Assembly (NCBI GenBank): GCA_973895155.1
Contig: OZ316893.1
Coordinates: 18,604,857 to 18,668,856, forward strand
Length of the DNA: 64,000 nucleotides
DNA from: Marsupella aquatica
Lineage: Eukaryota > Plantae > Marchantiophyta
Direction: 5' to 3'
The notes beneath the pieces were generated by a model. The model made no database searches, was not told where the DNA came from, and was given only the letters and a program-made list of their open reading frames with translations. Shown piece after piece: positions 4,030-48,655 of this stretch. The stretch's first letter is position 1. Every line of letters begins with the position of its first letter. The translations under genes and the position numbers were made by a program.

Positions 4030-5837
4030 TTTACTTTTATAATATGCAATGCCGCCAAAAAATTCTTTCGTCTGCTTACAAATTCAGAAATGGAGGGAAC
4101 AAACCTCAGCCATCAGATTTTTTCAAAGATTTTTTTGTACTCTTGGATTGATTGACCAGGTATGTCAAATTATATACTCATTTTAATAGTAAAATACAAA
4201 GTATAGGAGATTTTACTGATCTGACATCTTATATGAGAAGATATTTATGTGACATCATCTTAAATGAGTTTTTTTAAGTATGAAAGTACACACAAATGGA
4301 AGGAGAATCTTTTGGGCCATGAGAAATTTTTGGATTTTTGCAAAGCCTATGAGACTCTAGAAGGAAGGAAATGGGTTAATTTTATATTTTTTTTCTTCTC
4401 TGTATTTAGTTGTACATTTTCCTGGTTGTTTAATGGTGCCAATGTAAGAAAAAAAAGGGACTAATGGTTTTTCATAGGAGTGTAGAAATAGGAAAAAGGG
4501 GGAGAGAAAAAATTGAAATACTCCCCTCCGAATAGTATCAAAGCACCCGGGGGCCATCATCTCTCTTGCACTCCTCTCACCCTTGCTCTCCCCAACAATA
4601 TAGTTTTCACAACAAAAAAACATTTTCTTCCAAAATTAAAAAAAAATGCAAAAGCAAAAGCAAAGTCAACAATTTTTACATGTTTTGATTACATTTTTTG
4701 TTTTTTGTTTTATGTTTTGTAGAAGAATGGTCCCAAATTTGTTATTCCATCTAAACCTCCAACATTCTCTTTGAAAATCTTTTCAAAAAATGCATCTTTA
4801 ATGAAGGCCAAGAAGATCAAGCTCCCAACATCTTTTCTCCACAAGACATGTATTGCTTGACATGCCCTCATCTCTATTAGTCTCACTTTTGCCCTAATTC
4901 TTTTCCAAGTCGGGAGCCCAGCTCTTTGCCCCCATTTGCATCTTTTGTCCAATTTTTTGTTCCATCTTTTGTATCATTAACAATAAAGATTTCTTGCCCA
5001 ACTCTTTCCCGCGTACTCTCATTACCCATTTGCGCCTTATCCCATATTTTTGTGTTGACTTGAATTACACTATTTTGAACAAGATCTCCGCATTGACAAC
5101 ACTTTTCACATGAAATGGGCAAGAAAGAATTATGGAAAACCCAATATTGTTAGTTTGATCCACCTAAAAACCCCAGCTTTTAATCAACAGTTCTTTACCT
5201 TATCTCAATGTATCTATGCAATGCGTGGGCATCAGGCTTGGCAATTACAACATGGCCGCAAGACCAGCGTAGCCACAACACACTCATGGCCAGAGTGACT
5301 CCATCATCATAATGATGAGATGGTTGCAACAACATATGACATGTCTAAACAACTTTCTTGCCTCGCTTACATTAATTTGCATTATTTACATTTCTTTGGC
5401 TCACTTGCATCTATTTGCATTTCTTTGCCTCAAGTCACCCCAAATCTTTGCCTCTGCAATGTACATTTAAAAATGCCTCAACATTTTTGTCTTCTTTTGC
5501 CTTGACATCTTTGCCTTGCCAAAAAACCTTTTGCTTATCTCAAAATGTTTTTATCTCCTTCACTCACATCGACATCTTTTCTCTCCTCAATTTTTTTCTC
5601 ATCTCAACATCTTTTTCTCTCTTTGACATATTTTCTCACCTCAACATTTTTTGCTCACCTCAACATTTTTTGCTCATCTTGGCATCTTTTGTTCACCTTG
5701 GCATATTTTTCTCTCCTTGAAATCTTTTCTCATCTCAACATCTATTTCTCTCCTCAACATCTTTTGCTTACCTGGACATCTTTTGCTCACCTGGACATCT
5801 TTTCTCTCCTTTACATGTTTTATCACCTTGACATCTT

Positions 5838-6207
5838 TGTTAGGTATTTACTCATGGTCTAGGGTTACGACATGTAACCGTAGTTAGGCTAACCATAGTT
5901 GGAGACGTAGTTAGGCTAACCATAGTCGGAGACGTGGTTAGGTTAACTAGGATGCACACTATATGCCAAGCGGTGTTTGCTTGGATAAGTGGAACTTAGG
6001 CTCATTCTTATGGAGCCACTTGAGAGATGAGGAGAGCTTACACTGTGGAGACTTGGTATGGCCGACGGGCTTAGAGTTCAGTAAAGCTCTCTTGTGTGTT
6101 CCTGTGGACGTAGCCTCGAGGAGGTGAACCACGTATCTCTTGTGTCGACTACTTGCGCGTTGGATATGTCATGTGCTTACCGTTACAAGTGTCGTCTATG
6201 CTCAACA
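5838..6207 (+). mobile_element. Solo LTR of the Copia family also seen at 18503-21591 and 30621-31104
   Basis: TGTTAG...CAACA termini and perfect 5-bp TSD ATCTT (5833-5837 and 6208-6212). The internal sequence is the reverse complement of the LTRs at 18503 and 30621. Confidence 0.9.
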
Positions 6208-6586
6208 ATCTTTTCCTCAACTTGAAACTTTTATCACCTTGACATCTTTTTTTCTCTCTGTGACATCTTTTGTCACCTCGACATCTTTTGTCACCTCAAC
6301 ATCTTTCGTGCAATGCACGGGCATTGGATTCTTGCAGGAAAATATTTATCACCTTGACATCTTTTATCACTTGGACATCTTTTGCTTACCTTGATAGTTT
6401 TCTCTCCTCGACATCTTTTATTCACTTTGACATCATTATTTATCTCATTGACATCTTTTGTCACCTCAACATCATTCATGCAACGCACGGGCATTGAGTT
6501 CTTGCAAGAAAACATCCAGGGACCCTTACATTTATCCCATGGATTTTGTTGACATTTGACAAATCACTTCCTTTTTTATTACATAG

Positions 6587-6818
6587 AGTCCAATTTCCCA
6601 TTCGAGTGGCATATACAATGATCATAAACAAAGCTCAAGGTTAGACTTTAGAACATGTAGGGTTATAGCTTTCAAAGCCTGTATTTAGTCACGAATAGTT
6701 GTATGTAGATTTTTTAAGGGCAACATCTCCTACAACTATCAAGCTTTTACTTTTGGATTTCGAGGAGGATCAAGCAAGGTTGAAAAAAATTACTGTATAT
6801 CATGAGGTTCTTTATTGA
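6587..6818 (+). pseudogene. Helitron RepHel PIF1-like helicase C-terminal remnant
   Basis: Manual translation [44 protein letters not shown] matches the QFPxRxAFAMTINKSQGQTL...PVFSHGQLYVALSR motifs, with in-frame stops. Confidence 0.85.
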
Positions 6819-7152
6819 ACAAGTGAATAAAGATTGTATCACTTTTGTATTAATCTGTTTGACTTTTTGCCTAAATTATATGTTTGCAATGCACAACCTT
6901 GTTTGCCTCGCCTCAAAATCTTACCCTCACCTTCACATCTTGCCCTCACCTCAACATCTTGCCCTCTCCTCAAAATCCCTCTCCTCGACATCTTGCCCTC
7001 ACCTTGACAACTTGCCCTCTCCTCGACATCTTTCTCTCAACTCAACACTTGCCCTCCCCTGGACATCTTGCCCTCGCCTCCAAATCTTACCCTCACCTCG
7101 ACATCTTGCCCTCACTCAAAGTCTTTCGTGCAACACACAGGCATGGGGCTAG

Positions 7153-8870: not shown

Positions 8871-9053
8871 GAAAGGAACCCAGGTAAGATTGCAATGTTG
8901 TTAGTGCTTTACTAGATTTTGTGGACGCTACAGCTTGGACTAATTTTTCACAGAGAACTACTTTTAAATTTTATTTCATTTATAATACTCTATTTAATCT
9001 TTGTACTCTTATTTATCTATTCAAGTGTGCAACTCTTCATAGCTCCAGCTTAC

Positions 9054-22473: not shown

Positions 22474-24590
22474 GTCACGATGTTGGACATATGGCAAGGT
22501 TGTCAAAGGCCATGGGCATGACTCTTGCAAAAACTCGTGCCCTCGTTGAACACACCTTGACCCAAACATTAGGATCATCCAAATCCACAATAGTTGCCAC
22601 ATCACAACGAATAATAGTTAGCAAATCTGGCTCTCTACCATAGAGCAAGAAATAAGGTGAGAAGGATGCAAGTGATGCTTGTTGACTGAAACAATAGCCC
22701 ATAGCTAACCAAGGTAGCTGAAGATCCCAATCTCCCAAATGATCAACCTGCAAGCCATACTTCCGCAATCCTCTCTTCATAGTTTGTACAACTCTCTCTG
22801 CCAATCCATCTACCTCAGGATGATCACGAGACGTAGTACGATGATCAATAAGAGTTTGCTCACACAAACCTTTTAAATTCTCCATGGAATTTTGTGCCCT
22901 GATCAGTCAACACCTCAGCTGGTGCTCCAAAATGACTGAGTACTCGATCCAAAATTGTGATAGTCACTCCTCCACTAGCTTTATCTGGCAATGCCACTAG
23001 TTCAATCCACTTGGAGAAGTGCTCCACCATAACTCCATCGATACCCCAAACCCATGATCGGTAACAAATGCAATTGGGGAGTGGGAGCATTAAATGATAC
23101 TCTCACTCGATCACATACCACACACTTAACTATAAATTGTTGGACATTGGTGCACATACCACGCCACCAATATTGTGTTTGCAACAAGCTATACGTGCAC
23201 TCCACACCAAAGTGACTCAACTCTTGGTGCGCATGTCCCACCAAACGTACTCATTGTGACGGTTTTGGTACAACCAATACTTTGTCATCACGTAGTATCC
23301 TCAAAAGATGGTTTCCTTTCCATTGAAACCTCTTGGCTTGTTGTAGAACCCTATCTTGCTCCTTAGCATCACAATTGCCAACAATGGAGCCACCATGCAA
23401 ATATTCCAACACTCTCTTGTCGTTATGAATATTTTGCTGTCCAAAAATTATCTCATCAACATCCATATCTGAAGACTCAATGTCTACCACATCCAATGAA
23501 GTAGAGTCCACAGATCCACTATATGTTGGAACCCAACAAAGAAAGACAGATGCATGCCATCCTGGCACACTCTCCTTCTGACTCATCATGTCATCGAGCT
23601 CCAGTCTCATCCTCTTGACTGGTACATGGATTATAGCTCAATTTATCCGCATCCAAGTTCACTTTACTAGGCCTATGTACAACCTAGAAATCATACTCTT
23701 GTAACAACAATGCCCATCGTGCAAGCTTCCTTATAAGCTTGTTAGACTCCATTACCACTTGAGGGGCTGATGATCAGTGATCAAGGTGAATGGTTCACCA
23801 AACAAATAGCAACGTAAATGTGCCACAACCCACATTGCTACCAAATACTCTCCCTCATATGAGCTATACTTAGCCTCTACTAAATTGTTTGATCTACTAG
23901 CATACACCACAACAAACTCATTCCCCTCATCATCCTTCTGAGTCAACATATATTGCTCCAAGTCCTACTCCACTCCAATAAGTGTGTAGCTAAAATGGTC
24001 ATCCCAAAATGGGTCTTCTCAAAATAGGTGTTGATGCTAGTCTTTCCTTCAACTCTTGGAAAGCATGCTCTTGGTCGTCAACCCAAATCCACTCCTGATC
24101 CAACTTAGTGAGTATGGTTAAAGCTTAGCAAGGTCGCTAAATCTTTTAACATATCGTCTATAATAGCTCACCAATCCCAAGAATGCACAAACTCTACTCA
24201 CATCAATAGGACAATTAATATTTGTAATGGCCTCCACCTTAGTCACTTGCACACCCAATCCTCTTGGGTAGATAGTGTGGCCCAAATACTCAATTTTGTC
24301 TTGGAAGAACGTACATTTGCCATGATGGAGTTTCAACCCATGTTCTCTCAATCTCTCCAACACAATCTACAAGTGCCTCTGATGTTCTTCCACAGTAGAA
24401 GAATAGACCAAAATATCATCAATGTAACATCTCACAAAATCCAAACCTGCAAGAATTCGATCCATGACTCTTTGGAATTCAAATGGTAAGAACAACCAGT
24501 GATACAAACGATCTTTGCCATAAGAATCAATTCCCCCAAATGTTGTCTTGGATATATCAAAATGCCTAATTGGCAACTGATGGTACCCCA
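22474..24590 (-). mobile_element. Partial second copy (RT-RH-INT) of the DNMT/PHD Gypsy family
   Basis: Near-collinear with 42370-44490: CYIDDILVYS, TQKDDEGNEFVVVYASRSNN, HQEL..HFG..YWW..CVVC, VLTDQGT, GLAERVVQT. Cut at ~24590 by an L1, so no DNMT or PHD is present here. Confidence 0.9.
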
Positions 24591-27587
24591 CCTAGATGGC
24601 TAGGAATAAGTCGGCGGATGGGGTCCTCATAGTTGAGAATCCCCTATTCCAAGATCACAGCCTGAACCTTGTGGAAATGGAACCCACCCATACACATCTA
24701 ACAGTCCAAGAGAGCCCGTAGACAGGAAGAGCTGAGAAGGAGAATGCTTCAATCAAGACTCTTTGCACAGGGTAGAGCTTTTAGGCTTGCGTCAGCTAAT
24801 GCTGACCCACTAACGGTAGCCGCTAAGAGGAGCAAAGGGAACCAACGAGAGATTACGTCTGATGCACTTGGAGGAGTGACTGAATGGGTGACACCTCCAA
24901 CTCCACAAGCACAAGTGCATACTTCAGAGGCCAATTCCCCAAAACAACTACCTTCCAATAACAATGCAAATGATCTATACTCCTTTCATGGGGACACAGA
25001 TGCTGAAATGTTAGAATATGAGGAATATATCACACATAGTCAAATCAAGTCAAGGGCTAGGAAACAAGACTTGAGGTCTCCAACAATAGAGTAGAAGGAG
25101 TGGGAGAAAGCAGAAGGTAAAAAGCAACGTGCTTTGAGTTTCTCACACAATGCAGGGAAGGAGATGGACAAACATGTGGCATAACCGAATGTGGGACTAC
25201 ATTCACCACCCCTCCCATGAACCAGAACTGGCAGCCAGGAAAACTTTCAGGAATTCAGGGGAAGTGGATGGTGATACCTATTGCCTCACCTGGACTTTAT
25301 AGTCACGATGCTCTCAGACACGCGGGAGCTAACCCCTCACCTGGACTTTATAGTCACGATGCTCTCAGACACGCATGAGCTAACCCCTCACCTGGGAGCC
25401 GTCTTTGGATATAATCAGGTAGCAAGGCCACAGGCTTTCAGCTTTACACTAATGGATAGAACATTAAAGATAGCCTTGTGGAATGTGTGTGGGCTCTGCA
25501 AGCCAAACAAGAAATACACAGTTCAAAATTGGGTGAGTTCTTTAACGGATTCACTTGGGATTTACATTACAAGAAGTCAAATCAGATCAATTTAGACTCA
25601 ACATTGCACTCCGGGCAATTCTACCATTATACTAGCATTATTCAGCAAAACCGGATGAAGTACGTGGGGGAACGGCCTTATTGGTTCACCCCTCACTAAG
25701 GATCATAACATCGGGTAAACTAGCACAGGAGAAGCAGTATGGGTAACAATTGAGCTACCCACTTATATCCTGGGTGTTGCAAGCATTTACGCTCCAAACT
25801 CTCCAAGACTAAGACCTTTACTCTAGCATTCATGAATTAAAGTAGGAGCTGCCACAAGCCAACTGGATACTGTGTGGAGATTTCAACATGATGGAATCTT
25901 GTGCTGACTCATCGGGTGGCGCTTCTCTACTTAAAGGCCAAGAAGTGGAGTTTTGGAGATTCCTACAAGTCAGACTGGATTTGATCGATGCAAAAGAGCT
26001 TAGTCAAGGCATAATAGGGTCATGGTATACTTGGAGAAGGCTTCGAAACAATGCTTTGACACAATCAAGACTCGACCGTTTCTACATTAGCAATCAGGGC
26101 TGGTGGCTGGAGGGTATGGTCAAGTTGATTACGCATGAAGGTGGTACTGCCCTATTGGACCTCGACCCTGTTATTGTAACTTTTTGTCTACAACGGGAGC
26201 AAAATGAAGATGAAAGAGGTAGAGTAAAGTTTTTTAAATCAAATCTGTCTATTTTATGATCAAGAGAGAATATTAAGTTGTTAGAGGAAGCGTGGCAGCC
26301 AGGGGGAGCTGGTGAGAGGGACCTGCACCTTCGGGTTTCCAGAGCAAGTAAAAGTATGAGGCAAAAAATATATGGAGATCCAAGCTACTCCCCGACAAGC
26401 AGTTGAAGAGATGAACTTTCTCAGGGAGGAAGTCAGGGCCCTAAAAAACACTATAGCGGAGGAATACTTTGAGGCAAATTAAAGCTCTCAATCTTTTTTG
26501 TTAGAAGACAAGCTACATGCAGCAAAATTTGAGGAAGCATGTATTGCAGGAAAATGGCGAGAGTGAAATGGCTGGGAGAGGGGGAGGAATCTACTAAGTT
26601 CTTTTTTGCAACAGTCAAGGCTAAACAAGAAAAAGAAGCCATGCGGGCCTTAGAAAAGGAGGATGGTACAATTGTGACAGGCGGGTAGGAGATATTGGAT
26701 TGGAAGAAGTAGAAAGGTTCTGCATGGAGCTCTATGCTCCCGACTCCCCTTCCCGGCAAAACAGCTAGTAAATTGAAGAGATAGAGACAAACTTTTGAAG
26801 CATACCAGGCATGCATTCACAAATGGAGAACTCACTCAAATGGAGGCTCTCCCTACTCTGAAGGAAGTAGAGGACGTAATTGGACATCTCCCTTTGGATA
26901 AGTCCCCTGGAATCGATGGATTAACAGCAGAGGTATACAGAGGTTGCTGGCATTTTACGAGGGCGGATTTCATGAGCATGATACATGATTTTTGGTTAGC
27001 AAGGAGGGTGGCGGCGAAGATCAAAGATGGTTTGATCAAATTCATTCCTAAAAAAGTGGATAAGCACTTTCTTAAGGACTGGTGACCCTTACCTATCCTG
27101 AACATGGCTTATAAGATTTTGACAAAGATTGTGGCTTTAAGAATCAAAAAACTTCTACCCCGCTTCATTATTTCTCAACAAACTGGCTTCATCCCAAATA
27201 GAAATATACTTGAAAATATTTTGCTTGCATGGCTGATACAAGAATAGGTGAACAAACGGTAGGTGGAGACTCTTTTTACTCAAACTAGATTTTGAGAAAG
27301 CTTTAATTTGATAGAGTAGACCATAAGTATCTATGGGAAACTATGCGACTCCTGGGGTTCAGTGGCTGGTTCACCAAGCTAGTGCGGGCTCTACTGTCTA
27401 ATGCTTCCTCCCAAGTCTACGTTAATGAGAGATTGAGCTGCGCTATCGAGCTTAGGCGGGGAGTTAGACAAGGATATCCTCTCTCTCTGCTTCTTTTTGT
27501 GATCTCGACCCAGCCACGCATGGATTTCTTGGATGCCAAGCTGGCAAGACATAGGCTTAGCGGTATCAAAATATCTGAGCCAGTGCC
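24591..27587 (+). mobile_element. L1-clade LINE fragment (ORF1 tail + ORF2 EN/RT), decayed
   Basis: The ORF1 tail EMLEYEEYITHSQIK parallels EMSEYEEYISKSQLK at 59033-59482. ORF2 motifs IALWNVCGL, GDFN, SRLDRFY, KSPGIDG, LDFEKA, GVRQGYPLS. Includes a 51-bp tandem duplication at 25284-25394. Confidence 0.9.
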
Positions 27588-32958: not shown

Positions 32959-34022
32959 GATAAGAAGAAAGTGAAACGAAGGCTAAGAAACAAAAGGCAT
33001 TGATATTGAAAAGGGAATTCGGACAGAATGGATAGAAAACGCTGGAGGTTCTTGAGAGTTGAAAAAGCTTAATGAGTATATTAGTGGAAGGATCGCGAGT
33101 TTGTTGAGGGGTCGATGGAAGAGATCTGAAAGAATGAAGAATGCAAAGGATGGGGAGGAATTCATATGCTGCGGTGAAGAATGAATGCATGGAAGGAGTT
33201 CAAGAGAAAAAAGAGCAAAAGGTGATGGAATTCAGGACTTTTTTTCTTTTTACTGAATTTAGATAGTACTTCCAAACAAAATAGGTGGAGTTCCTAGCAT
33301 TCACGTTCCTAGTTCCCTAGCTTCCTAGCATTCACGTTCCTCCTCTGCAATTCAGTAAAAATAGTAAAAAGAAAAAAAGAAAAATAGTTGAAGAAGAGTC
33401 GGTGGTTTGAAACTCCATTTTCCTGGATAGAGGACATAAGTTCAATAACAAAGAAAGGCCGAAAGAGCTTAAGAGGTGATTTAAGAAGATTTTAACTTGA
33501 ATTTGAGAAAGATTTTGGAGTTAAACATGGCTGGAAGAAGGTTCTTCGTCCTTTGGGACTGGGAGGACAAGGAGAAGGGGCAAGAGAGAAGGAAATATGG
33601 GGTGCATCCAAGGAGGAGGAAAAGTATGCCAAGAAACAAGAGGCAAGACAACTATTGAAATTATGTAGTGAATGCCTTGGAAAAACAATTGATGACTAGG
33701 TAGGGAAACTTGGATAAATCTGAATGGACTCCTTGGGACCTGAACTGAGCCAAGTCCAAGACCCCCAGCTGAGGAAAAACCGGCAAAAGAGTTGATTAGT
33801 AGACTTCAAGATGTTGTAAACCCTAAAACTCAAAAAGTTTTATCACAAATAAAATGTGTTTTTTGTTATAAGGGACAAAACCCTAACCCTACTTACCCTA
33901 GAACATAGGAGGTTACATAACCGCCATACCATGTACTACATAGGGAGAGATTTCCACTCCCACAATGTAATGAAGGAAGTGAGCTTGCTGGTGTATTGAA
34001 TGTCCATGATTAATCCATATTA

Positions 34023-34037
34023 CGTTATCAGCACGAC
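34023..34037 (+). promoter_or_regulatory. Primer-binding site complementary to the tRNA-Ile anticodon arm (half-tRNA priming)
   Basis: cgttatcagcacgac is the reverse complement of GTCGTGCTGATAACG and lies 5 nt after the 5' LTR. Confidence 0.75.
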
Positions 34038-34371
34038 TCTATCCTTGGAGCACAATTCTTAATTTTTCCTTAAGCAATCGATTTAGTGAACCGATGTGCA
34101 CATTTCGAATTATTGATTGAACCAAGGATCAATTTTTTTTTCTCAAACGACACCTTGAAGGATCAGGAGCGCTGACATCTGAACACCGAATACCCACATT
34201 GAAATTTGCTCTTTGATCAATACGAGGAAGTTTCTTCTTCACCGTTTTCTTTCCATTTGAATTTCTTAGACCTCAATGCCACAACTGATTTAAAGAATTC
34301 AGGCAGAGCATAACTCACAAATTGCTTGATATAACTCGATTTGAGATCCTATCATCATAACTTCCATCACC

Positions 34372-37300
34372 ATGAATTCGATAGAGAAGCTTCAATTTAA
34401 GGCTCTAACTATTGATGGTGCCAATTATTTATCCTGGTCACTTGATGTCGAAGCATATCTTTACTCAAAAGACCTACAGGACACTATTTTAACCGATGCA
34501 GGCCTAACATTACAGCAAAAGGCGAGAGCATTAATCTTCATACGCCACCACCTTGCAGAGCCACTCAAGATTCAATATCTCAATCAATACAACCCCCGAA
34601 TTCTTTGGGAAGATCTCAAATCACGGTTCGATCACATGAGCCTAGTCTCTCTGCCGGCCGCACGCCACGACTGGATAAATTTGCGTGTACAGGACCACAC
34701 TTCTATATCAAACTACAACGGAGAACTTTTTCGCATCACCTCTCAACTCGCAATCTGTGGCCACCCAGTTAATGACGCCGAGCAGATTGAAAGAACCCTA
34801 TCAACGTTCAGTGCCGGAAATCTCATCCTTGCATCCCAATACCAAAACATGGGTTTTACAAAATATTCCGAGCTAATTGCTCATATGCTTCTTGCTGAGA
34901 AGCACCAAATACTCCTACTGGAAAATGCAAAATCTCGCCCACCAGGTATAGCCGCTCCACCACCCAAACCTGAAATCAATTTCAACAGACAAAATGATAA
35001 GATCCGAGGCAGAGGACGTGGCACATTCAGGGGGAGAGGACAACGACCATTTATCAGAGGCAGAAACCAACAAAGGGGCAGAGGCTATGGACAATTCCAT
35101 AATTTGGAATATCAATCTTCTGGACATTTTTATCGAGGAAGAGGACAACGTGGACGAGGTAATGGATACAGAGGCAGAGGCCATAGCGGAGGCCGTGGCC
35201 GAGGACCTAATAGTTGGACCAGAGAGAACGAAAATCTGACTGAATGTTTCAGGTGTGGCACAAAGGGTCACCTACAGAAAAATTGCCGATCTCCTGCCCA
35301 CCTGGTCCAACTTTATAAACAAAGCATGGAATTACCTAGTAATGAAGCCCATGGAAACTATATGGAAACTATAGATGATATTGAGGGATATGCACCAGAA
35401 GTACATACTGCCCAATTAGGAGCTAATCCCTCTATGCTCGACGATCATCACAACTGTATTGTCGATAGCGGCACATCTCATTCCATCCTACGCCATAAAG
35501 ATTATTTCCTACGTATCACTCCATCCCACAGATCCATGACAACCATAACTGGACCTAATCATATAGAGGAAGGTTATGGTCCAACACAAGTCAGATTCCC
35601 CAAGGGTACAATTCTCCACATAGACTCCGCCATTTATGCTCCGCGGGCTACTCGAAACCTGATAAGTTTCAGTGATATACGCGCCAATAAATTCCACATT
35701 CGTACAGAGACATGTGGCAACCGTGAGGTCCTACATATCCTGGAAAATACCACATCAGGGAGATTAGTGCGAGAGATACTCCCCATATATCCCCCAGGAC
35801 TCTACATCACCCGAATCTATTCATATCATGCTACAAGTACTTCATTGACTTTAACACAAATATGGCATAATCGCCTTGGACATCCTGGTACAAGTATGTA
35901 CCACAATATACTTAAGGCTACCGTGGGCATACCTAAAGGCGTTCACCCATCTGCTACCAGCAAACCCTGCCTCGCATGCTCACAAGGAAAAATGGTTACC
36001 CGTCCCTCACCATCCAAGACAATACATCAGATACCACAATTTTTGGAGAGAATACACGCTGATGTCTGTGGCCCCATTGACCCTCCTTCTGGCCCATTCC
36101 GATATTTCCTAGTTATCATTGATGCCTCTACTAAGTGGTCACAGGTCTCCCTGATCTCTACCCGTAACCTGGTCTTCCCACGAATATTATCGCACATATT
36201 GAAATTAAAATACCAATTCCCAAAGAATCCCATCAAAACCATTAGAGTTGATAACGCGGGGGAATTTACCTCCAAAACTTTCGATACCTTCTGTGAAACT
36301 ACAGGTATCAATACAGAATATCCGGTTCCACATGTTCACTTTCAGAATGGTCTTGCAGAATCCATAATCAAACGAATACAGATGGTGGCCAGACCTCTCC
36401 TGATGCAGTCAAATTTACCAGCATCAGCTTGGGGCCATGCGGTCCTGCATGCAGCTGCCCTGATTCGACTGAGACCGTCCTCATTTAATACACAGACCCC
36501 ACATTTTCTAGCATATGGATTACCACCAGACATCACACATCTATGAATTTTTGGCTGCCTGGTACTTGTCCCAATTTTAGGTCCCAAGAGAACTAAAATG
36601 GGACCTCAGAGACAGCGCGGTATCTATGTGGGCTTTGACTCACGCTCTATTATAAGATATTTGGAACCTTCCACAGCAGATGTTTTTAAAGCACGGTTCC
36701 AAGACTGCCATTTCTTTGAAGACGATTTTCCAACCCTTACAGAAGATCCCAAGAGAAATGGCGATGTACCAGTGAAAGACTTACAATGGTTGTCTCCTCG
36801 CCTGCTTACAGAGGACCACCGAACTAAAGAAACAGATCTGGAAGTACAACATGTTCTCCACTTACAACAGATGCTTATGAAACTTCCTGATGCATTCAAC
36901 GATGCAGCCACTGTCACTCGCTCACACATCGAAGCAGCCAACATACCAGCTCGAATTTCTCGGCAGCCTACACCAGCCACTCACGCTGCACCCAAGGCCA
37001 AAAGAGGACGCCCACTGGGATCCAAGGACTCTCATCCAAGACAGTCCCGCACGAGTGTAGCTAGCTCGTCCATGTCCCACCATTACACCAACCATAGAAC
37101 CATCTTCACAAGGACCAGCCGATAATGAGGAGATCACAATTAATTACGTACATACCGGGAAGATAATGCAGTGTGATACAATCCGAATTGATGATATCTT
37201 TGCATTCCAGATTTCCGAGGACATTATCAATACAACTCCTGATCCCCTAACCATTGCTGAGGCCCGAACTCGCCCGGATTGGCCACAATGGGAGCTAGCT

Positions 37301-39055
37301 ATCAATTCAGAACTGGACTCCCTAATCAGACGAAAAGTTTTTGGGCCCATCATTCCTGCACCTGCCGGACTTCATCTTACAGGATACAGATTTATTTTTG
37401 TTAGAAAACGAAATGCGAAAGGAGAAGTTATCAGACATAAAGCACGCCTAGTCACGAAGGGCTATACCCAGATCCCCGGTTGGGACTTTGATCAAACATA
37501 CTCTCCTGTCATGGATTCCATCACATATAGATATCTTATTGCATATGCTCTTATCCACAAACTAGTAATGCATATTTTAGATGTGATTACTGCCTATCTA
37601 TATGGTATCCTTGATACCAAAATTTATATGAAGGCACCCCCCGAACTCATCAAGCGATTGACGTTTCACATTGAGGGGGAGAAAACCGGTAAACTAAGCC
37701 CAGGTCTACAACCTGGAGTACAGCAAACTTGTCCTACAGGCAATTTGACTTCAGTGACGGTTGAGACTGGACCTTTAGTCCCAACCACACAAGATGTGCT
37801 ACACACATCCGCTCAGAGGAAACGAATGTCTTCCTCACAGGTTACCCCTGTTACACAAACAAAGAAAGTTAAAAGAGAACTTGCAGTTCAAGTACTTCGC
37901 TCTCTATATGGTTTAAAACAGAGTGGGCGGACCTGGTATAAACGCTTCAAAGCTGAAATGATTGCACTGAATTTTATTACTGACGATATTGCCCCTTGCC
38001 TATTTCTCAAACAGGACGGAAATGAATTCGTCATTATAGCAATTTATGTTGACGACATCAATATTTTTGGCACAGCAAAAATTACAGCTGACACAATAGA
38101 CATCCTGAAGAAGATATTCGAGATGCGGGACATAGGTAAACCCACCTATTGCTTGGGCTTACAGTTTAATCACTTGCATCATGGCATACTCATTACTCAA
38201 TCTACCTATACTGAGAAAGTATTAAAACAGTTTAACATGGAGACTGCTTACCCTGTTAGCACTCCTATGGATTTGAGATCCTCAGATCCTGCAAAGGATA
38301 CATTCAGGAAATGGACTGCACCAGAAGCCATTCTTGGCCCAGAAAAGCCTTACCTCTCAGCAATCGGGGCTCTCATGTACCTGGCTACACAGTCCCGTCC
38401 TGATATCTCTTTTGCAGTCAATCTTCTTGCACGCCATAGTGCCAAACCCACTATTCGTCACTGGAATGGCGTAAAGCGAGTATTCCGTTACCTGCGAGGA
38501 ACCACAGACCTGGGACTATTCTTTCCCAAGCAGTCAGAAAATCTATTGGTGGGATATGCAGACGCAGGATACCTTTCAGACCCTGACGATGCAAAATCCC
38601 AGACGGGATATGTTTTTCTTCAAGGAGGTACTGCTATCTCCTGGAGAAGCTACAAACAAACATTGACAGCTACTTCGTCCAACCACGCGAAAATCATTGC
38701 CCTCTACGAAGCCACTAGGGAATGCATTTGGTTAAGAAACTTGATGGATCATATTCATACACACACAGGGAACTCTCGTTTGGATAAACCTACGATTATC
38801 TATGAAGATAATCGACCCTGTGTCGATCAGATAGTGCAGGGTTTTATCAAAGGCGATCGTATTAAACATATAGCACCTAAATTCTTTTATACACGTGAGC
38901 AGCACGGCGGACAGGTCAATGTACAGTGGATTCCTAGCAAGGAAAATCGAGCAGATTTATTTACGAAACCACTACCATCATCTCTCCACAGAGAACATAC
39001 ATATGGTATAGGCATGAGAAGCATGACCTCACTGCTGCAGGGCATCGATAGATAA
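34372..39055 (+). pseudogene. Copia gag-pol polyprotein with one premature stop and one frameshift
   Basis: Motifs GANYLSW, CFRCGTKGHLQKNC, CIVDSGT, WHNRLGHPG, IHADVCGP/RVDNAGEF/NGLAE, YVDDIN, YADAGY..IYEDN..ADLFTK. TGA at 36544-36546 (HL*IFGC, expected CGA Arg). Frame change near 37075-37100, before NEEITINY. Confidence 0.93.
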
Positions 39056-40487
39056 ATCGGAACTGCCATTATTGATGCAGCGCATTCATGAATATCTCAA
39101 CATTTCTTACACACAGGCTACAGTTTTGAATATCTATAGATAACCAGCGATATACTCTACTACCATTCTGTCACTCAACATTTGACTTATGCTCATCCGC
39201 AAGCTGAATAACAGAGCCGAGCTCAAGATATATCTACAAATCAAGAATCGAGAGAGATAGACGTCAACTAGCAACCAACTCATTTTTGCACTTAATCACA
39301 CATAAGCGCAACATCTTCTTACCGTCCGAGCTTTATTGATTATGACCGAGTTATTGCACCGAACAAACCAAGCGCAGGACAACGCCAAACTCCAGGACCC
39401 TGGGCGCACAACCGCGAACAACGGAAGTAGCAGTAGTCGACCCCAACAACGACTCAATCGCCACTTCTCGACTCAACTTCTCGACTCAATAGCCATCCAC
39501 ATTCTACCTCAGCACTGCCGCGCAGCAACATCTGATCACAGAGCAATCTTCGATTTCCCGTTCCCATCGATTACCTCGAAGTTCAAGCTTCAGCTCACGA
39601 AGGAGACTATCGAATGCATACCTAGTCTGTAAACTTCTTTTTACACTTAGCCTTACACTCAATAGTCAATAGAACTTAGATTTACTTTTACAGATACAAA
39701 CTACTTATCGTTATAATTCTTTGATATATTTCATTTTTGGCCTTAGACCATGTAATAGTAGTGGCACTCTTCCCATGATTGAAGCATGGTTTTAATGAGA
39801 CCATACTACACTTTGGCCAAATAATAGACATATCATTACAAGGGTTAGTTTTTCCCCATACTTTTATGGTTGTTTGAAATATTTTTCATTCAACCAAGGG
39901 GGAGTGTTATAAGGGACAAAACCCTAACCCTACTTACCCTAGAACATAGGAGGTTACATAACCGCCATACCATGTACTACATAGGGAGAGATTTCCACTC
40001 CCACAATGTAATGAAGGAAGTGAGCTTGCTGGTGTATTGAATGTCCATGATTAATCCATTTTTTTTTTTTTAATGTTTTGAATGTAACAAACATGTTTTG
40101 TGGATAGAATGCATAGTCTTTTGAAAACAAGAAAACTTGTGAATGGTGTGAAATCCTTAAGGATGAGATCAAATAAGCATAAATGTTGTTTAAAAATAAA
40201 AGATAAAGAGAAAAGTTGATAATTTAAATGAGTAGTTGTCATTTTGGAGAAAACTAAAATTTTCTAGTTAAATCATCTGTTATTAGAAAGACACCTTAAC
40301 AAGACTCATTAAGAAGTAAAATAAATGGAAAGGACAATAATGCTAGTTTGAAAACGTTGAACATGAAAGAGAAATTAATGTTAAGTAGAGCCTTTTAATG
40401 AAATTTGAGACAACATTAAGGGAATTGATCATATGAGTTGATGATAAATGTAAACTGAGTTCCTAAGAGTTAAAAAGGCCATCTTTT

Positions 40488-41157
40488 CACCAGCTTATAA
40501 CGGTTCCCCGGACAGCGTACCTAGCCAACCACATCAAGTTTATCTTGGAGTGGCATGCCCATTTTGATCGACAAGCTCTCCCGTGATGTAATGAGCCAAA
40601 GATCATCCAATCCAGGTGGGTCTTCCCGGTGGAGAGGAGACCCCAGCCCAGATCCAGGAGCCTAGTACCCGCAACCTCCACCCCAAGCCCGAGGCCAACC
40701 GACGGAGACTCTTCCTTATTGCTTGACACTACTGTCATTGCGGCACTAGAGGCACAAAACCACGCTAGGGAAACTACCCTGGAAAGCCCTATCGTGATTG
40801 ACCCCATACTTGCGGCCCCTACTATTGAGGAAAGCCCACCATCCATCACCCCACCTTCCCTTGCACAAAACCCAAGGGGCCAATCTTTCCCAATGGCCCC
40901 ACCGCCAACCACCCAGGAGCTCATCAACCCGGCTCCTCTTTTGGACCTACATGTGACCAACCTCAAGGGGCGTGTCAGGACCCCTGCAACCACGGCCCTA
41001 GTAAGTTCAGAGTTCTTTAGCCCCAACACTTTCCTCCACGGGCTACTCTCCAACTTTTCCAGTTGATTGGCCATGATCTGGGGGAACTCATGGCCCGTAA
41101 GGTAGCCTCCTTCTTTGGCCAAGAACTGGTTGTAGCGGTAAATGCAAGTCAGTACCA
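40488..41157 (+). pseudogene. Remnant of a Gypsy accessory (extra) ORF, homologous to 49845-50426
   Basis: AYLANHIKFILEWH / Pro-rich linker / QLIGHDLGELMARKVASFFGQ parallels TYLGSHIAIILAWY / Pro-rich linker / QTLSGELATYIGQQVSAYFQP. Confidence 0.6.
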
Positions 41158-41765
41158 TGTTGTGCGCATAAACATCGCTACACAACATACATTGCTTGTC
41201 ACACATATCTAAGCATAGTCACAATCAACATCACAAACATAAGAGAATGGAGTACAAGTGGAACTCCTATCCACACATGTCCAAAACCCACAATGAATCT
41301 TCAAGAGCAATTAAACAGCAATTGATGCCAATCAAACACAAAATCCTGTCCGACGCGATCACACACTTATGTCAAGCCAAATGCACCTTGCGCCTCAAGG
41401 AATCCACATTATGTACACACAACCTAGACAACCACACCATAGCCGCTAGAGCTTGTGCTCAAAAGGCTCAACATCAAAAGATGAGCCCTTTGAGCCAACA
41501 CAAAGAGATATATAACTATCCCTCACAAACATACACTAACCCTAAAACACTTAGATAACACACATATGAAAGCCTCAAACCTACATAGTTCGATATCCTA
41601 TACTACCACTCATATTGGTGTGACAACTGTTGTGCGCATAAACATTGCTACACAACATACATCGCTTGTCACACATATCCAAGCATAGTCACAATCAACA
41701 TCACAAAAATAAGAGAATGGATTACAAGTGGAACTCCTATCCACACATGATTGTCCAAAACCACA
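41158..41765 (-). repeat. 3' LTR of the DNMT-Gypsy, with a ~135-bp direct repeat at both ends
   Basis: Begins TG on the minus strand at 41765, just after the PPT. Repeats at 41158-41292 and 41628-41765 are each bounded by TG..CA. Confidence 0.7.
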
Positions 41766-41942
41766 ATCGTCCCCCCTAGCTGGGAGTGAGTTCCCCTAAC
41801 TCTAGCTAGTCATAAGTTCTACAAGGTTGATATACACCTTTTTAAGTGTGGAGATCAAGAGATCGGGTGCAAGTGAGCCCCATCGATCACCTTCCTGCAA
41901 TCTATACCTTCCATGAGAACACCAAATGGTAACTAGTCGGCT

Positions 41943-42090
41943 TCACTGACATTGAGGACACAACCATGATTCACTAGGGATCACCTCTAATGGTGGTGTC
42001 AAACACGACATGTGCCATCCTCTAGAACACTTATCACAAATCAACATAGTGGCTGCTCCTTGAGCAGATCCACACAACATACACTTCAAA
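41943..42090 (-). other. PHD finger (C4HC3) at the integrase C-terminus
   Basis: CMLC-x10-CDKC-x4-H-x2-C-LTPPLEVIPSESWL-CPQC*: all eight zinc ligands and the conserved Trp are present. Confidence 0.93.
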
Positions 42091-44938
42091 CCGGCACGAA
42101 CATGAACTAAACTTGGATCTACAATACCATCAATGTTTGAAAGATGCATGACATGGTGCACAATTGCGCACATGATCCTTCCAAACCATATCATCACGTC
42201 CTTCCAAGATTAGGACACTAGAAGATAACACTTCACGCACACGTAAGATTATCTGACCTACAGTCACATCAAGTGTCGTTGGTGCTGTTTGCTGCAAATA
42301 AACAAAATCACCAGGATGAAACCGTCAAATCCTCGCACGATAACCTTCTCCATGAATAGTGGCATACCTCAAAGTATCACAATGGTCATGTTGGGCAATG
42401 GCAAGGTTGTCAAAGGCCATGGGCATGACTCTCTCAAAAACTCGTGCCCTTTCTAAGCACACCTTGACCCAAACATCAGGATCATCCAAATCCACAACAA
42501 TAGTCACATCACGACAAATAGCCGTTGGCAAATCTGGCTCTATATCATAGAGCAAAAAATAAGGTGAGAATAATGCAAGTGATGCTTGTCGACTGAAACG
42601 GTAGCCCATAGCTAACCAAGGTAGTTGGAGATCTCAATCTCCCAAATGACCAACCTGCAAGCCATACTTACGCAATCCTCTCTTCACGGTTTGTACAACT
42701 CTCTATGCCAATCCATGTGCCTCAGGATGATCACGAGAAGTAGTACAATGATCAATAAGAGCTTGCTCACACAAACCCTCAAACTCTTCGCGGAATTCCG
42801 TGCCTTGATCAGTCAACACCTCAGCTGGTGCTCCAAAATGACTCATTACTCGATCAAAAAATGTGATAGCCACTCCTCCACAAGCTTTATCTGGCAATGT
42901 CATTAGTTCAATCCACTTGGAGAAGTGCTCCACCATAACCAAAACATATCAATTATGACGTTGGGTAAGAGGTAATGGACTAGCAAAGTCCAAACTCCAT
43001 CGATATCCCAAACCCATTATCGATAACGGATGCAATTGGGGAGTGGGAGCATTGAACGATACTTGCACTTGATCACATACCACACACTTAGCGATCAATT
43101 GTTGGACATCAGTGCGCATACCACGCCACCAATACTATGTTTGCAACAAGCTATATGTGCGTTTCACACCAAAGTGACCCAACTCTTGGTGCGCATGTTG
43201 CACCAAACGTACTCATTGTGATGGTTTTGGTACAACCAACACCTTGCCATCACGTAGTATCCTCAAAAGATGGTTTCCTTCCCATCAAAACCTTTTGGCT
43301 CGCTGTAGAACCCTATCTCGCTCCTTAGCATCACAATTGCCAACAATGGAGCCACCACACAAATATTCTAACACACTCTTGTCGTTATGAATATCTTGCT
43401 GCCCAAAACTACCTCATCAACATCCAAATCTGAAGATTCAACGTCTACCCCATCCAATGAAGTAAAGTCCATAGATCCACTATGTGTTGAACCCAACAAA
43501 GAAAGGCAGATGCATGCCATCCTGGCACACTCTCCTTATCTGACTCATCATGCCATCGAGCTCTAGTCTCATCCTCTTGACTGGTACATGGATTTTGGCT
43601 CAACCCATCCGCATCCAAGTTCACTTTACCAGGCATACAACCTGGAAATCATATTCTTGTAACAACAATGCCCATTGTGCAAGCTATCCTGTAAGCTTGT
43701 TAGACTCCATTAACCACTTGAGGGGCTGGTGATCAGTGATCAAGGTGAACGGATTACCAAACAAATAGCAACAGAAATGCGCCACAGCCCACACAGCTTC
43801 CAAACACTCTCCCTCATACGAGCTATACTTAGCCTCTGCTGAATTGTTTGATCTACTGGCATACGCCACAACAAACTCATTCCCCTCATCATCCTTCTGA
43901 GTCAGCATTGCTCCAAGTCCTACTCCATTCCAATCAGTGAGCATGCTCTTGGTCGTCACCCCAAATCCACTCCTGGTCCAACTTAGTGAGTATAGTTAAA
44001 GACTTAGCAAGTTGGCTAAATCGTTTAACATACCGTCTATAATAGCTCGTAATCCCAAGAATGCACAAGCTCTACTCACATTAGTAGAACGAGGAATCTG
44101 TGTAATGGCCTCCACCTTAGTCTCTTGCACACCCAATCCTCCTGGGTAGATAGTGTGGCCCAGATACTCAATTTTGTCTTGGAAGAACTTACATTTTCCA
44201 AGATGGAGTTTCAACCCATGTTCTCTCAATCTCTCCAACACAATCTGCAAGTGTCTCTAGTGTTCTTCCACAGTCAAAGAATAGACCAAAATATCATCAA
44301 TGTAACATCTCACAAAATCCAAACTTGCAAGAATTCGATCCATAACTCTTTGGAATTCAACTGGTGCATTCTTCAACCCAAATGGTAAGAACAACCACTG
44401 ATACAAACAATCTTTGCCATAAGAATCAATTCCCCAAAATGTTATCTTGGATCTATCATAATGCCTAATTGGCAACTAATGGTACCCTGCCTTGAGATCC
44501 AACGAACTAAATATTTTTGCATGCCCCACAGCATCAAAGATCTCCTCAGGTGTGGGCATGGCATATCGATCAGATTTTTTTTGACGATTAATAGGTCGAT
44601 AATCACCACACATTTGCCTATCTGTGTAATTGCCATGCACATCCTTCTTGGTTGGCATCACTGTGGCAGATGCATACTCCTCGTATGAGATCTCCACCAA
44701 ACCAACCTCCAACAAATCCTAAGTTCTACTCTGGATCAAAGCCCTCTCCAGGTCACTATACCGATACGGTCGTCGAAAGATTGGTGCATCACTAGCCAAT
44801 TTGATCTGAATACCAGGGCCCTTCAATGTCCCCAAATCCTTCATACTAAACGCAAAACAATTCCAATAACTCTTCAAGAATTGATGCATGCAACATCTCT
44901 CCCTCCCGGTCAACTTAGGACCAATCTGTGGTTCCCAA

Positions 44939-45125
44939 CTCTCCATCAAAGCGGTGACATCTTCCTTTGGAGTTGAAGAGGCTACAAGCCATGGGCTGTG
45001 ACTCTCCATCAAAGCAGTGGTGTCTTCCTTGGGAGTTTAAGAGGCCACAAGCCGTGGGCTGTGACTCTCCATCAAAACTGTGACGTCTTCCTTTGGAGAT
45101 GAAGAGGCCACAAGCCGTGGGTTGT
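44939..45125. repeat. 63-bp x ~3 coding tandem repeat in the DNMT-RT linker
   Basis: ctccatcaaa starts at 44941, 45004 and 45067. Each unit encodes approximately HSPWLVASSTPKEDVTALMES on the minus strand. Confidence 0.9.
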
Positions 45126-45339
45126 GGATGGAAGAGTTAGTTGCTCGTTGATATTTATCAATGGTTTGAGCAACCTCCTTTTGCTCAGCAATTTGTTTTG
45201 CCTTGGCCAATCTTCCATAGGTCCATCAATCGTCTGCTCGCCCCCAACTGTGGCTGCTACTACCTCGGTAGGCCGCAAGCTCACCAATGGACGATCTGTA
45301 AAATTAGAAGTGCACATTTGCAATTGTTCAGCTAATCCC

Positions 45340-46290
45340 AAGCTGATAATCCAAGTCAAGCAATTCAAATCCATGGCTTGACCAAGGACTTGACAACGTG
45401 AATGCTCCAACACCGAGGCCATTGCCGTGGTGCTAGTCAAAAATCCCATAGCCCGCTCTCTCTCATTAGCGGTAGGTTCTACTAGTTGTTGTAGAGTTGT
45501 ATCCCACACAAGTCTAGGGCCACCTGCTCAAAATGCGTATGAAGCGGAATGACTCACAAAAGTGGGTAATGCACAATGCGGACGCCCATCTACATTCACC
45601 ACTGCCAATGGGGGTCGATCAGATTGGGTAATACTTTGTGCACGACGCCCTGGATCCAAAATACCATCCACCACTAAGGTTGTTGAGCAAGGTACACCAT
45701 CAAATGCTCGCTTCAAGACCTCACATGGTAACAAATTAGTCCACCACAATCGTGGATGACGCACACGAGAACCTACATGTGCAACATTCAATAACATAGC
45801 AGGTCCAATCCAAGAACCTGATGAACACTAGCAACAATTTGATGACAATCATCACCCAATAATGGCACATTCTCCAAAATGTATGTAGGAGAATGTGTCT
45901 GATGCATCTGGAGATGGCGCAACACACGTAACATCTCCCAAAATAATGTTGATCTTGGATCATGAAATCCATGTCCAATTCCAACCCAAGATTGACCTTG
46001 ACATGGCCAACCCGCAATCACCAAATCAATGGAGCCAACACGATCCAAATGATCCGCCCCCAATAATGAAATATTAGTAGGCAATGCATGCTGATATCCA
46101 CGAACGGCATCCACTGGCAACAATTGTGGATAACGTTCCACCAACATTGCTACATGACGTGGGATCCTCCGTGTTATTTCATCATTTTCCATGTACAAGT
46201 AACGACGTACAGGAACTCCTGCTTGAAGAACAACAACCAATAAATTTAGTGCTAATCCCACCAAAGAGATCCAACAAAACAAATACCCTC
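45340..46290 (-). pseudogene. DNMT3-like C5-cytosine DNA methyltransferase domain inside Gypsy pol (frameshifted)
   Basis: Motif I LLDLFGGIST (46248-46277), II YLYMEND, IV IDLVIAGWPCQG (PCQ 45998-46006), V DPRSTLFW, VI YILENV (ENV 45866-45874), VIII GSRVRHPRLWWTNL, IX EPTANERERAMGF, X VLGQAMDL, all in canonical order. Confidence 0.92.
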
Positions 46291-48655
46291 CTTTGGATAC
46301 TGCCATGCAATAGGAGTGGTATCCAATGGTGAAAGGGTCACCGGTCCATTTGCAAAAGAATGTTGTGATCCTGACTCCGGTGTGAAAGCATGACGCCATG
46401 CATCATGTATCAATTGGGCCGCATTTTGTTGCAAGGCCTCTCCAGTACCCCATACTGGTGCCACAATAGTATCAACAGGTGATACACGCATCATGTGTTC
46501 CTCACGTGGCTCCTCCATTGTCGGAACATCTCCTGCATGTGCGTTTCTTTCAATCAAATCATCAGATCCAGTAATCAAACTACTGAATGCTGCCAAAGAC
46601 AATGGTGTAGATTTAGGACCTCCCACAAATCCACTAAATTGCATTGGCAATTGGCTCAATCAAGCATCTCCATAGTGCCAATCGGGTCGATATGACACCA
46701 ACTCATCCCAAAAATCAAGAACAAATCCCATAGGATAAAGTATTGTACATCCCACTAACACATCATATGACTCAGTCTTAGTCAAAATAGCTTGAGCCTG
46801 GATCCGTGAGCTATCCTTTGGATGATCCTCTTGAATCCTAAGTTCAAGTGCTTGTCTAGTGATATGCTGTTTGGGTGTAGATCCTCCCAACAAAGTCTAA
46901 ATGGGAAAGGGACACTCCTCCAAATCATTTGGACGCAATCCCAATCCTTGTATTGCAAACTTACCCAACATCAAGGGCTGAGCACCAATATCCAATAACA
47001 CTTGTTCTGGTTGGTATATCACTCCAAAAGGCCCAACTAATCGGAAGATACCACTCCAATTATCTAATGATACTACACTAGGTTTAAACCTAGTTCTCTC
47101 AAAAGCAGGGCATGCTGGTAACTCCATCAACCTCGCCGCTGCTGCTTGCCATGTTTCACCACTAGCAATAGGTGGAATCAACTCCACAACTTCAGATTTA
47201 TGCATTGTCTCTGCACGAGAAGTAACAACTGGAGTGTCTTCACATAATGTGGCCACCAATCTGAACACTTAAGGTGGACTAACTCCCAATGCCAATATAT
47301 CTGTTGCTGAAAATAATGGGGTGCGCACAATATTAGTGGCCGCCCACAAGGTGCTTGCTAGCCCTGTTGCAACATCATCTGATTCTACCAACTTATCAAC
47401 ACTTGGATTTGTCTTAACCGGGTTCATAGAGGTAGTGTGAACCACCTCTAACAACGTAAATGATTGGGGAAGCTTCGTTTGACAACAAGCCTCCCCCCTT
47501 TGAGGATCCAACTCTACCATTGCTCCTCGGGGCTCAAGGGCTTTGGTTGCTCCTTAAGTCAAAGCTGCCAATGCATCAACATGGGCAGTGCCACACATGA
47601 ATCCTATGGTGGCCAAGTCTCTGTCAGCTCCATAAGATGTAGATTGAAGCTCCATCACCAGAAGTAGGTCTAACCTGAGAACTGGCCATGGTAGCTAGTT
47701 GTTGCTCCAATTGAGCAATCTTTGCATCCTTTGGATTTATGGTAGTGGTAGGAGCATCACCTCCTTGTCTCCCTGCATGTGGCATACCTCGGCCGTGACC
47801 ACCACCTCTACCTCCTCTTCCCTGCCCGCTTCCCTGATCATACGTATGCGATCCTCCCCGTCATAGTTCAGGATGGAGTATAAAACACCTATCCTTGGTG
47901 TGACCAGAAACTCCACAATGATCACATAATCGTTGATCGGGCATAGATGCCCTTCGGACCCTCTATTATCCGAGCAATATCTTTGTGCATGATCCCCACC
48001 ACAAGTCCAACATCCTCACTATTGTCCAGCATAGGAGGGCACAGGTCTCTAACTAGTAGATTCCCGTGTTGTAGGCTTCTCCCTCTGGCTCTTCCTTGCA
48101 GTAGTGTGACACGGGTAACGTGTCACTTAACCGAACGCAGGTCATAGATTAGGTCTTATACGGTCATTAGGACCGTAGCCGTAGCGTAGAATAGCACGAA
48201 TAGCTGTCTTTTGCCATTATGAATAGATTAGGAGTAGGTTAGTTGACCAAATGATTATGAATTAAGGAAGAGGATTATTACGCTCGACCGAGGTACGGTG
48301 GTGGCAGCGGAGTAAAAATCTGTTAGAAGAATCACGCTTGGACTGAGATGCCAATTTCAGCTCATTATCAACGACCAAAACGGCCTGGCCCTCTCACGCT
48401 CGAGCTCACCCTGGCACCTCCATAAGAGAGGAGTCGATGGCATTGCGGGCCATTTGCTCATTTCTACCTTTTGGAATTCGCGGACGCTGCCATTTTCTCG
48501 CCTTCTTGCTTGAATCAAGCTGACCTTTACAAGGAAATCATCGAGGGATAAGAGCGGGTTGTGGCGAGATTTAGTCAGGGCGAGGAAGGCCTCCACCAGT
48601 AAGCGGACCGAACAGCGGGAACGCGGACTCAAAAAACCGGACTACAAAGGTTAGT

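Follow-up and report, generated by a model that had tools for sequence, protein, structure and literature searches.

Why retrotransposons retain a silencing enzyme is a standing question, and a locus of Marsupella aquatica (Marchantiophyta) puts it in testable form: a cytosine methyltransferase and a PHD finger lie in the same retroelement, the latter directly 3' of the integrase. A preliminary description of the DNA took the finger to occupy the chromodomain position of chromoviruses and proposed that it reads histone H3 unmethylated at Lys4 (H3K4me0) while the element supplies its own methyltransferase, in the manner of DNMT3. What may this finger bind, and does it act together with the methyltransferase? 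These questions are addressed here in the window, that is, the whole stretch of 64,000 nucleotides analysed (contig OZ316893.1, positions 18,604,857 to 18,668,856), and in the relatives of the element.

The minus strand from about 47.9 kb to 41158 holds one dead, decayed Ty3/gypsy element (Pfam and tblastn). Its domains follow the order gag knuckle, protease (PR), C5 methyltransferase, reverse transcriptase (RT), RNase H (RH), integrase (IN) and PHD, which contains the Ty3/gypsy order PR-RT-RH-IN with a DDE integrase. The methyltransferase was rightly assigned to the same element as the PHD, a C5-methyltransferase domain being found between the protease and RT (PF00145, tblastn). The coding features of the element and of a second copy are the following.

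47867..47926, minus strand: remnant of the gag zinc knuckle (tblastn, E = 1.8e-4)
46633..47481, minus strand: aspartyl protease region (tblastn with ORF1 of the related locus L002, E = 6e-24; Pfam protease in L002 ORF1)
45324..46277, minus strand: DNMT3-like C5 cytosine methyltransferase (DNMT) domain, broken (PF00145, E = 2.1e-11; tblastn)
44938..45126, strand not given: three 63-bp tandem copies within the DNMT-RT linker
43636..44943, minus strand: RT and RNase H, disrupted by stops and frame changes (PF00078, PF17917, tblastn)
42148..43224, minus strand: integrase with H2C2 finger, DDE core and C-terminal beta domain; six in-frame stops (PF17921, PF00665)
42084..42148, minus strand: integrase-PHD linker, with a frame change at about 42144-42148 in the window copy (tblastn, frames -2 to -3)
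41949..42083, minus strand: PHD finger, C4HC3, with 8 of 8 zinc ligands (PF00628, translation, PDB matches)
41943..41945, minus strand: TGA stop closing the PHD frame (translation)
22480..24681, minus strand: second decayed copy of the same DNMT-Gypsy family, from RT to the integrase core, truncated before the PHD (88-89% identity)

The remainder of gag is absent from the window, the gag region running into a different, plus-strand Gypsy. The closest named partial matches of the integrase query are from Calypogeia (77% over 49%) and Sphagnum (73% over 36%). The fragment at 22480-24681 is strongly depleted in CpG and CHG (0.32 and 0.42). Depletion in the element itself (0.46 and 0.61, against 0.62-0.83 and 0.97-1.15 in three neighbours) was considered as a sign of self-methylation and dropped, because the element is more decayed than those neighbours.

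That the integrase ends in a PHD finger, as first described, holds for this copy in position but not in reading frame. A complete C4HC3 finger (E = 6.5e-12 and 45.7 bits against PF00628, with a cut-off of 24) lies directly 3' of the integrase, yet out of frame with it, and the integrase frame meets a stop at 42130-42132, ahead of the PHD. With this stop, the frame change and the six stops within the integrase, the "one polyprotein" of the preliminary description is unreadable from the window copy, and the fusion is found only in relatives. Four letters at 42144 are missing in other copies (8, 5, 3 and 6 contigs in four public runs); such contigs account for about half to two thirds of the local depth, which is not read as copy number.

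A search with the integrase only returned 94 longer homologues, 78 of which have PF00628 in the same protein, the named carriers being Klebsormidium, Tetrabaena and Volvox. Of the 16 homologues that have no PHD, seven terminate within the integrase; the Calypogeia and Sphagnum proteins stop short of the PHD position, and the Closterium proteins are without a PHD. An out-of-frame PHD in intact copies had been named in advance as one outcome that would overturn the proposal. Among 80 metagenome loci the frames of the integrase end and the PHD are equal in 52 and unequal in 14, with the position uncovered in another 14, which gives a common frame in 52 of 66 covered loci; the junction is free of stops in 16 of these 52. 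Both the length and the sequence of the linker that joins the integrase beta domain to the finger are conserved. The finger is also under purifying selection, with dN of 0.069 and dS of 1.32 between the two intact loci L002 and L003, and dN is below dS in all ten unsaturated pairs out of 15 (five were saturated, and five of 11 regions in which the motif was not found intact were excluded). An AlphaFold model of one relative is modest (pLDDT 62.5, pTM 0.34) and supports the integrase fold only, matching foamy-virus and Ty3 integrases. In this family the PHD forms a conserved module at the integrase C-terminus, as the 78 of 94 homologues and the dN/dS values demonstrate. One family member, P0141, bears the NCBI label "uncultured Synechococcales cyanobacterium", probably a binning artefact in this eukaryotic family.

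The sequence of the finger places it among readers of unmodified H3, in agreement with its initial classification as AIRE/CHD4/BAZ-like: its best PDB matches are fingers of CHD4, KMT2C/D, ATXR5, DPF3, PHF21A, UHRF1 and KDM5. The R2-binding Asp/Glu is kept in 77 of 81 family PHDs, and the pocket for H3 A1 retains its Pro in 71, its Gly in 60 and its Trp/Phe in 78; the window copy is without the pocket Gly. At the positions that form the aromatic cage of K4me3 readers such as the BPTF and ING fingers, neither the cage Trp nor an aromatic residue before C1 occurs in any of the 81. Residues of this kind make binding of the free H3 end by the family PHDs plausible and binding of K4me3 unlikely. The H3-contact positions were mapped from KDM5A PHD1, for which the available text reports that the R2-binding Asp is essential and that H3 K4 can also be held by main-chain carbonyls (10.1101/715474).

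The branch that contains the window copy (13 proteins) has the R2 Asp in 12, the pocket Pro in 11, the Gly in 10 and the Trp in all 13. The acidic K4/R8 contacts have mostly disappeared from it: equivalents of E305, D306 and D315 are found in 0/13 each and of D292 in 2/13, and the window copy has none of the four. These contacts are patchy throughout the family and present in part of the other 68 PHDs. The mean net charge of the finger is +2.3 in the window branch (n = 13) versus -2.7 in the other 68, with values of 0 to +4 in 13/13 branch members. With the acidic K4 contacts gone and a net positive charge, the fingers of this branch are doubtful as strict readers of H3K4me0, and for the same reasons their H3 binding could be weak or lost. 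The H3K4me0 proposal agrees with the A1 pocket, the retained R2 Asp and the missing cage, but not with the K4 acids, most of which are gone from the window branch.

The element's methyltransferase is DNMT3-like by the ranking of its PDB matches: for the intact domain of L002, DNMT3A/B/C entries fill the top 29 places among 43 matches (best E = 8.5e-8), and bacterial enzymes rank behind them (4.5e-5). In the survey of PHD and DNMT co-occurrence suggested by the preliminary description, a DNMT lies ahead of RT in 25 of the 28 related loci with at least 2 kb upstream, and DNMT and PHD are both seen in 19, but each also occurs alone. P0048 has the order PR-RT-RH-IN-PHD and no detectable DNMT, and Closterium P0093 combines a DNMT with an integrase that has no PHD at its end. 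Both are present in P0153 (2811 amino acids), a single ORF with the order PR-DNMT-RT-RH-IN-PHD and with about 1,130 residues between the end of the DNMT and the finger. Across 95 proteins the DNMT is placed before RT in eight and directly before the integrase in 23, while 64 have none within the called ORF, mostly because that ORF begins at RT or later. The 23 proteins form one clade, which includes volvocine proteins (FastTree support 91), in an integrase tree whose outgroup is long and gappy and from which neither the root nor the order of DNMT moves is claimed. Members of this chlorophyte-like clade, with the DNMT between RNase H and integrase, include P0036, P0046, P0060, P0070 and P0078, among others. 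In P0078 the PHD is followed by a PTM/DIR17-like Tudor domain (E = 6e-8), and the C-terminal tails of P0049, P0058, P0080, P0086 and P0090 contain an extra domain with DP.xG.G and SPW[F/Y] motifs. By its motifs, this tail domain of algal members resembles an amino-methyltransferase; the P0058 tail has no match in PDB or Pfam.

The DNMT of the window copy is broken. In P0153 the domain lies within the one ORF, and in several other, bryophyte-like families it is followed by an in-frame stop. L002 is intact save for one such stop. Downstream of the DNMT, 22 of the 28 loci examined have a stop with a CAR codon next to it on the 3' side (17 TAG and five TAA). This stop is in the RT frame in 20 of the 22 and shifted by indels in the other two; it occurs in four sequence contexts, and most rows belong to one family and are non-independent. 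The exact motif TAG-CAR-YYA is present in L002 (5083-5091) and in L018 (about 9005-9013), and a stop plus CAR lies about 186 nt upstream of RT in further loci such as L004, L010 and L012. According to the available text of PMC3159437, UAG-CAR-YYA is the tobamovirus readthrough consensus, a known plant readthrough signal. The stop is absent in six of the 28 loci, which include one open-linker family. A conserved linker stop is missing from P0153 and from the bryophyte-like family of L045, L062 and L080, and none was seen in the window's own family. Where present, the stop plus CAR between DNMT and RT is a candidate for programmed readthrough.

Downstream of the PHD the element ends in an arrangement more elaborate than the stop, polypurine tract and LTR first described. 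The TGA stop and a purine run are both present, but they lie about 165 nt apart and are followed by a B-A-B split repeat, not a plain LTR.

41770-41777, minus strand: polypurine tract-like run AGGGGGGA, directly before B1 (sequence; same position in relatives)
41628..41767, minus strand: repeat B1, with a CA end, then 2 nt and the TG start of A (blastn, 93% to B2)
41295..41625, minus strand: segment A of the 3' split repeat, with a TG start (position; A-coding-B-A-B layout in L010, L041 and L045)
41158..41294, minus strand: repeat B2, with a CA end, the 3' end of the element (blastn, 93% to B1)

Contig depth drops past about 41143, beyond B2, and the 5' A partner is absent from the window. In the low-depth flank at the element end, overlapping open frames at 40490-41218 (minus) and 40587-41063 (plus) have no Pfam match. 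B...B pairs are found in 19 of the 55 loci with sufficient 3' DNA, some of them being the same insertion in two samples, and the complete A-coding-B-A-B layout is found in L010, L041 and L045. All three copies have TG as their first and CA as their last letters, a 4-bp target duplication is present for two of them, and inspection by eye found no TGG primer site after the 5' A in any of them. In nearly all junctions printed, the CA end of B1, two bases and the TG start of A2 make up a CA-NN-TG junction. The combination of split repeats with a DDE integrase, and without a visible tRNA primer site, raises its own question of how such an element replicates.

The surroundings of the element had been read as a nest of transposable elements that fits targeting to heterochromatin. 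A young Copia at 33864-40062, with LTR segments 99% alike and pol in three long frames, lies 1.1 kb past the 3' end of the element. A plus-strand Gypsy at about 48.3-64 kb interrupts the gag region of the element, and the integrase of this Gypsy is in turn interrupted by a LINE that is nearly intact (DUF4283, EN, RT, zf-RVT). All have far longer open frames than the PHD element; since they are less decayed and one interrupts it, they are likely to have arrived after it. The nest is thus weak evidence that tells little of the element's own target, and it was dropped from the argument. Degenerate tandem arrays of 17-, 19- and 35-bp repeats occupy 2700-7130 of the window, and an NB-ARC/LRR gene lies about 7 kb downstream of another family copy (L054:9320-12211).

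We favour, with a probability of about 55%, a reading in which the PHD tethers the integration complex through the unmodified end of H3 and the DNMT3-like domain works separately on the new DNA of the element. Cutting of the polyprotein by the element's own protease is established for Ty3/gypsy, and such cutting would leave the PHD with the integrase and the DNMT apart from it. The finger would bind A1 and R2 of H3 by means of the conserved Pro/Gly/Trp pocket and the Asp that follows the third Cys. The window-branch finger, sensing K4 methylation weakly, may disfavour H3K4me3 promoters rather than home to heterochromatin. Where a stop follows the DNMT, this domain would be made at the level of Gag and RT-IN-PHD by readthrough only; a DNMT packaged in excess over RT and IN would suit the methylation of cDNA in the particle. 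The strong co-occurrence of DNMT and PHD and the clade of 23 proteins with the DNMT directly before the integrase argue against so separate a role of the enzyme.

The same two observations, together with the DNMT3-like character of the methyltransferase and the more often acidic PHDs of that clade, speak for a coupled module on the pattern of the ADD domain in DNMT3: the PHD would read H3K4me0 and, where the element inserts, recruit or activate its DNMT. The ADD, however, differs in type from this canonical PHD, being a GATA-PHD module that packs against the catalytic domain; the window branch is also missing the K4 acids. DNMT3-style coupling, the central idea of the preliminary description, is unsupported for the window architecture because the two domains are far apart, with RT and RNase H between them, can be separated by a stop and occur singly, and as a general account we regard it as improbable. 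It is possible mainly for the algal layout, where a DNMT directly before the integrase would allow tethering. A somewhat better case can be made, though we think it unlikely, that the finger of the land-plant branch is no reader of histone marks and uses its basic surface to bind the DNA of nucleosomes, a protein of the host or the integrase, with no preference for a chromatin state. The uniformly neutral to basic charge, the absent acidic patch and the conserved linker to the integrase beta domain are all consistent with this, but the R2 Asp, Pro, Gly and Trp persist in the very same branch, and their joint retention has little reason without an H3-like ligand, even if the Trp is also structural. 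Scarcely credible, finally, is the notion that the PHD is a chance passenger from captured host DNA beside a dead element; its displaced frame in the window copy might suggest so, but in relatives among bryophytes, Klebsormidium and volvocine algae it is conserved and shares the integrase frame, it is under purifying selection, and the relatives already refute this reading.

Beyond the tethering reading favoured here, we raise as a rather speculative extension, which the odds are against, an old clade from chlorophytes to bryophytes with a self-contained read-write system, in which the PHD would tether the integrase to unmodified H3 and the DNMT3 would mark the incoming DNA. Algae would retain this system as a single DNMT-IN-PHD protein, and land plants would tune it by stop readthrough. 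Replication would need no tRNA primer and would go through the split repeats, inside which a CA-NN-TG junction duplicates both end signals of the integrase. Natural variants exist in which the DNMT adjoins the integrase, lies far away, stands behind a stop or is absent, and the intact L002 and P0153 supply domains for assays.

Among known fingers, those of the family are most like KDM5A/B PHD1, ATXR5, BAZ2, UHRF1, DPF3, CHD4 and AIRE, which are the best PDB sequence matches and with which they share the A1 pocket and the R2 Asp. They differ in the window branch from KDM5A, AIRE and BHC80, whose PHDs are described with an acidic K4 groove that is largely missing here. With chromoviruses the element shares a chromatin reader at the integrase C-terminus that is thought to direct insertion, but the reader is a chromodomain there and a PHD here, and two LTRs there correspond to split repeats here. 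A GPY/F motif before the reader is a chromovirus feature; a GP[Y/F] motif precedes the PHD in 0/81 family proteins. No chromodomain is listed for any of the 94 integrase homologues, and Pfam finds none in the window segment. The finger thus occupies a position analogous to that of the chromodomain, and the comparison made in the preliminary description is one of place rather than of demonstrated replacement.

The nearest described element is KnitGypsy-Dnmt3 of Klebsormidium, a DNMT3-bearing Gypsy with DIRS-like A-coding-B-A-B repeats (de Mendoza et al. 2018, PMC5890265); for streptophytes the type is named Gypsy-DNMT3 in 10.64898/2026.05.21.726589. Gypsy domains, a DNMT3-related coding domain and A-coding-B-A-B repeats are common to both, B-A-B being present in the window and the full layout in the three relatives. 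Two Klebsormidium proteins are among our homologues, one of which (P0079) carries a PHD; in the integrase tree the proteins of K. nitens, which may or may not be the published DNMT-bearing copies, are placed between other homologues. The main text and three text supplements of PMC5890265 do not mention a PHD, although its Fig. 4c may show one. KnitGypsy-Dnmt3 was reported there from one alga, whereas members of the present family are bryophyte-like or chlorophyte-like, have the DNMT at one or the other of two positions and in part carry a stop of the readthrough type. Its DNMT had no activity in yeast, a result inconclusive according to its authors, who proposed methylation of cDNA as its role (PMC5890265). 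Several reports describe PHDs in elements of Gypsy and other types and propose a function in targeting (10.1101/2022.06.16.496473, PMC6673714, PMC8557442, 10.1101/2021.11.30.470311). In Chlamydomonas, Gypsy-7a_cRei has a PHD in Gag-Pol, for which a targeting role was proposed, and a 2.6-fold excess of intergenic insertions (10.1101/2022.06.16.496473); compared by description only, it differs in that no DNMT is reported in the available text and the figure legend puts the PHD before INT. REM1 is cited as another PHD-bearing Gypsy of Chlamydomonas, and no DNMT is reported for it in the text available. The EpiLTRs, LTR elements with a chromodomain, a DNMT and a DAM (10.64898/2026.05.21.726589), also unite a chromatin reader and a cytosine methyltransferase within one element, but they have a chromodomain, a DNMT sister to DNMT4 and an adenine methylase, and that text states them to be distinct from Gypsy-DNMT3. 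The REXdb paper, in its available part, names no PHD or methyltransferase, Phygy and Selgy included. In the openly readable text searched, we found no published pairing of PHD and DNMT3 in Gypsy and no DNMT-RT stop. DNMT-bearing Gypsy elements, PHD-bearing Gypsy elements and elements with a chromodomain and a DNMT are already in print, and the present element belongs to a large, partly described green-plant lineage of which some details look undescribed. If its finger steers insertion, a lineage abundant in bryophytes would show that plant LTR elements have a second way of choosing their targets, one that relies on a PHD.
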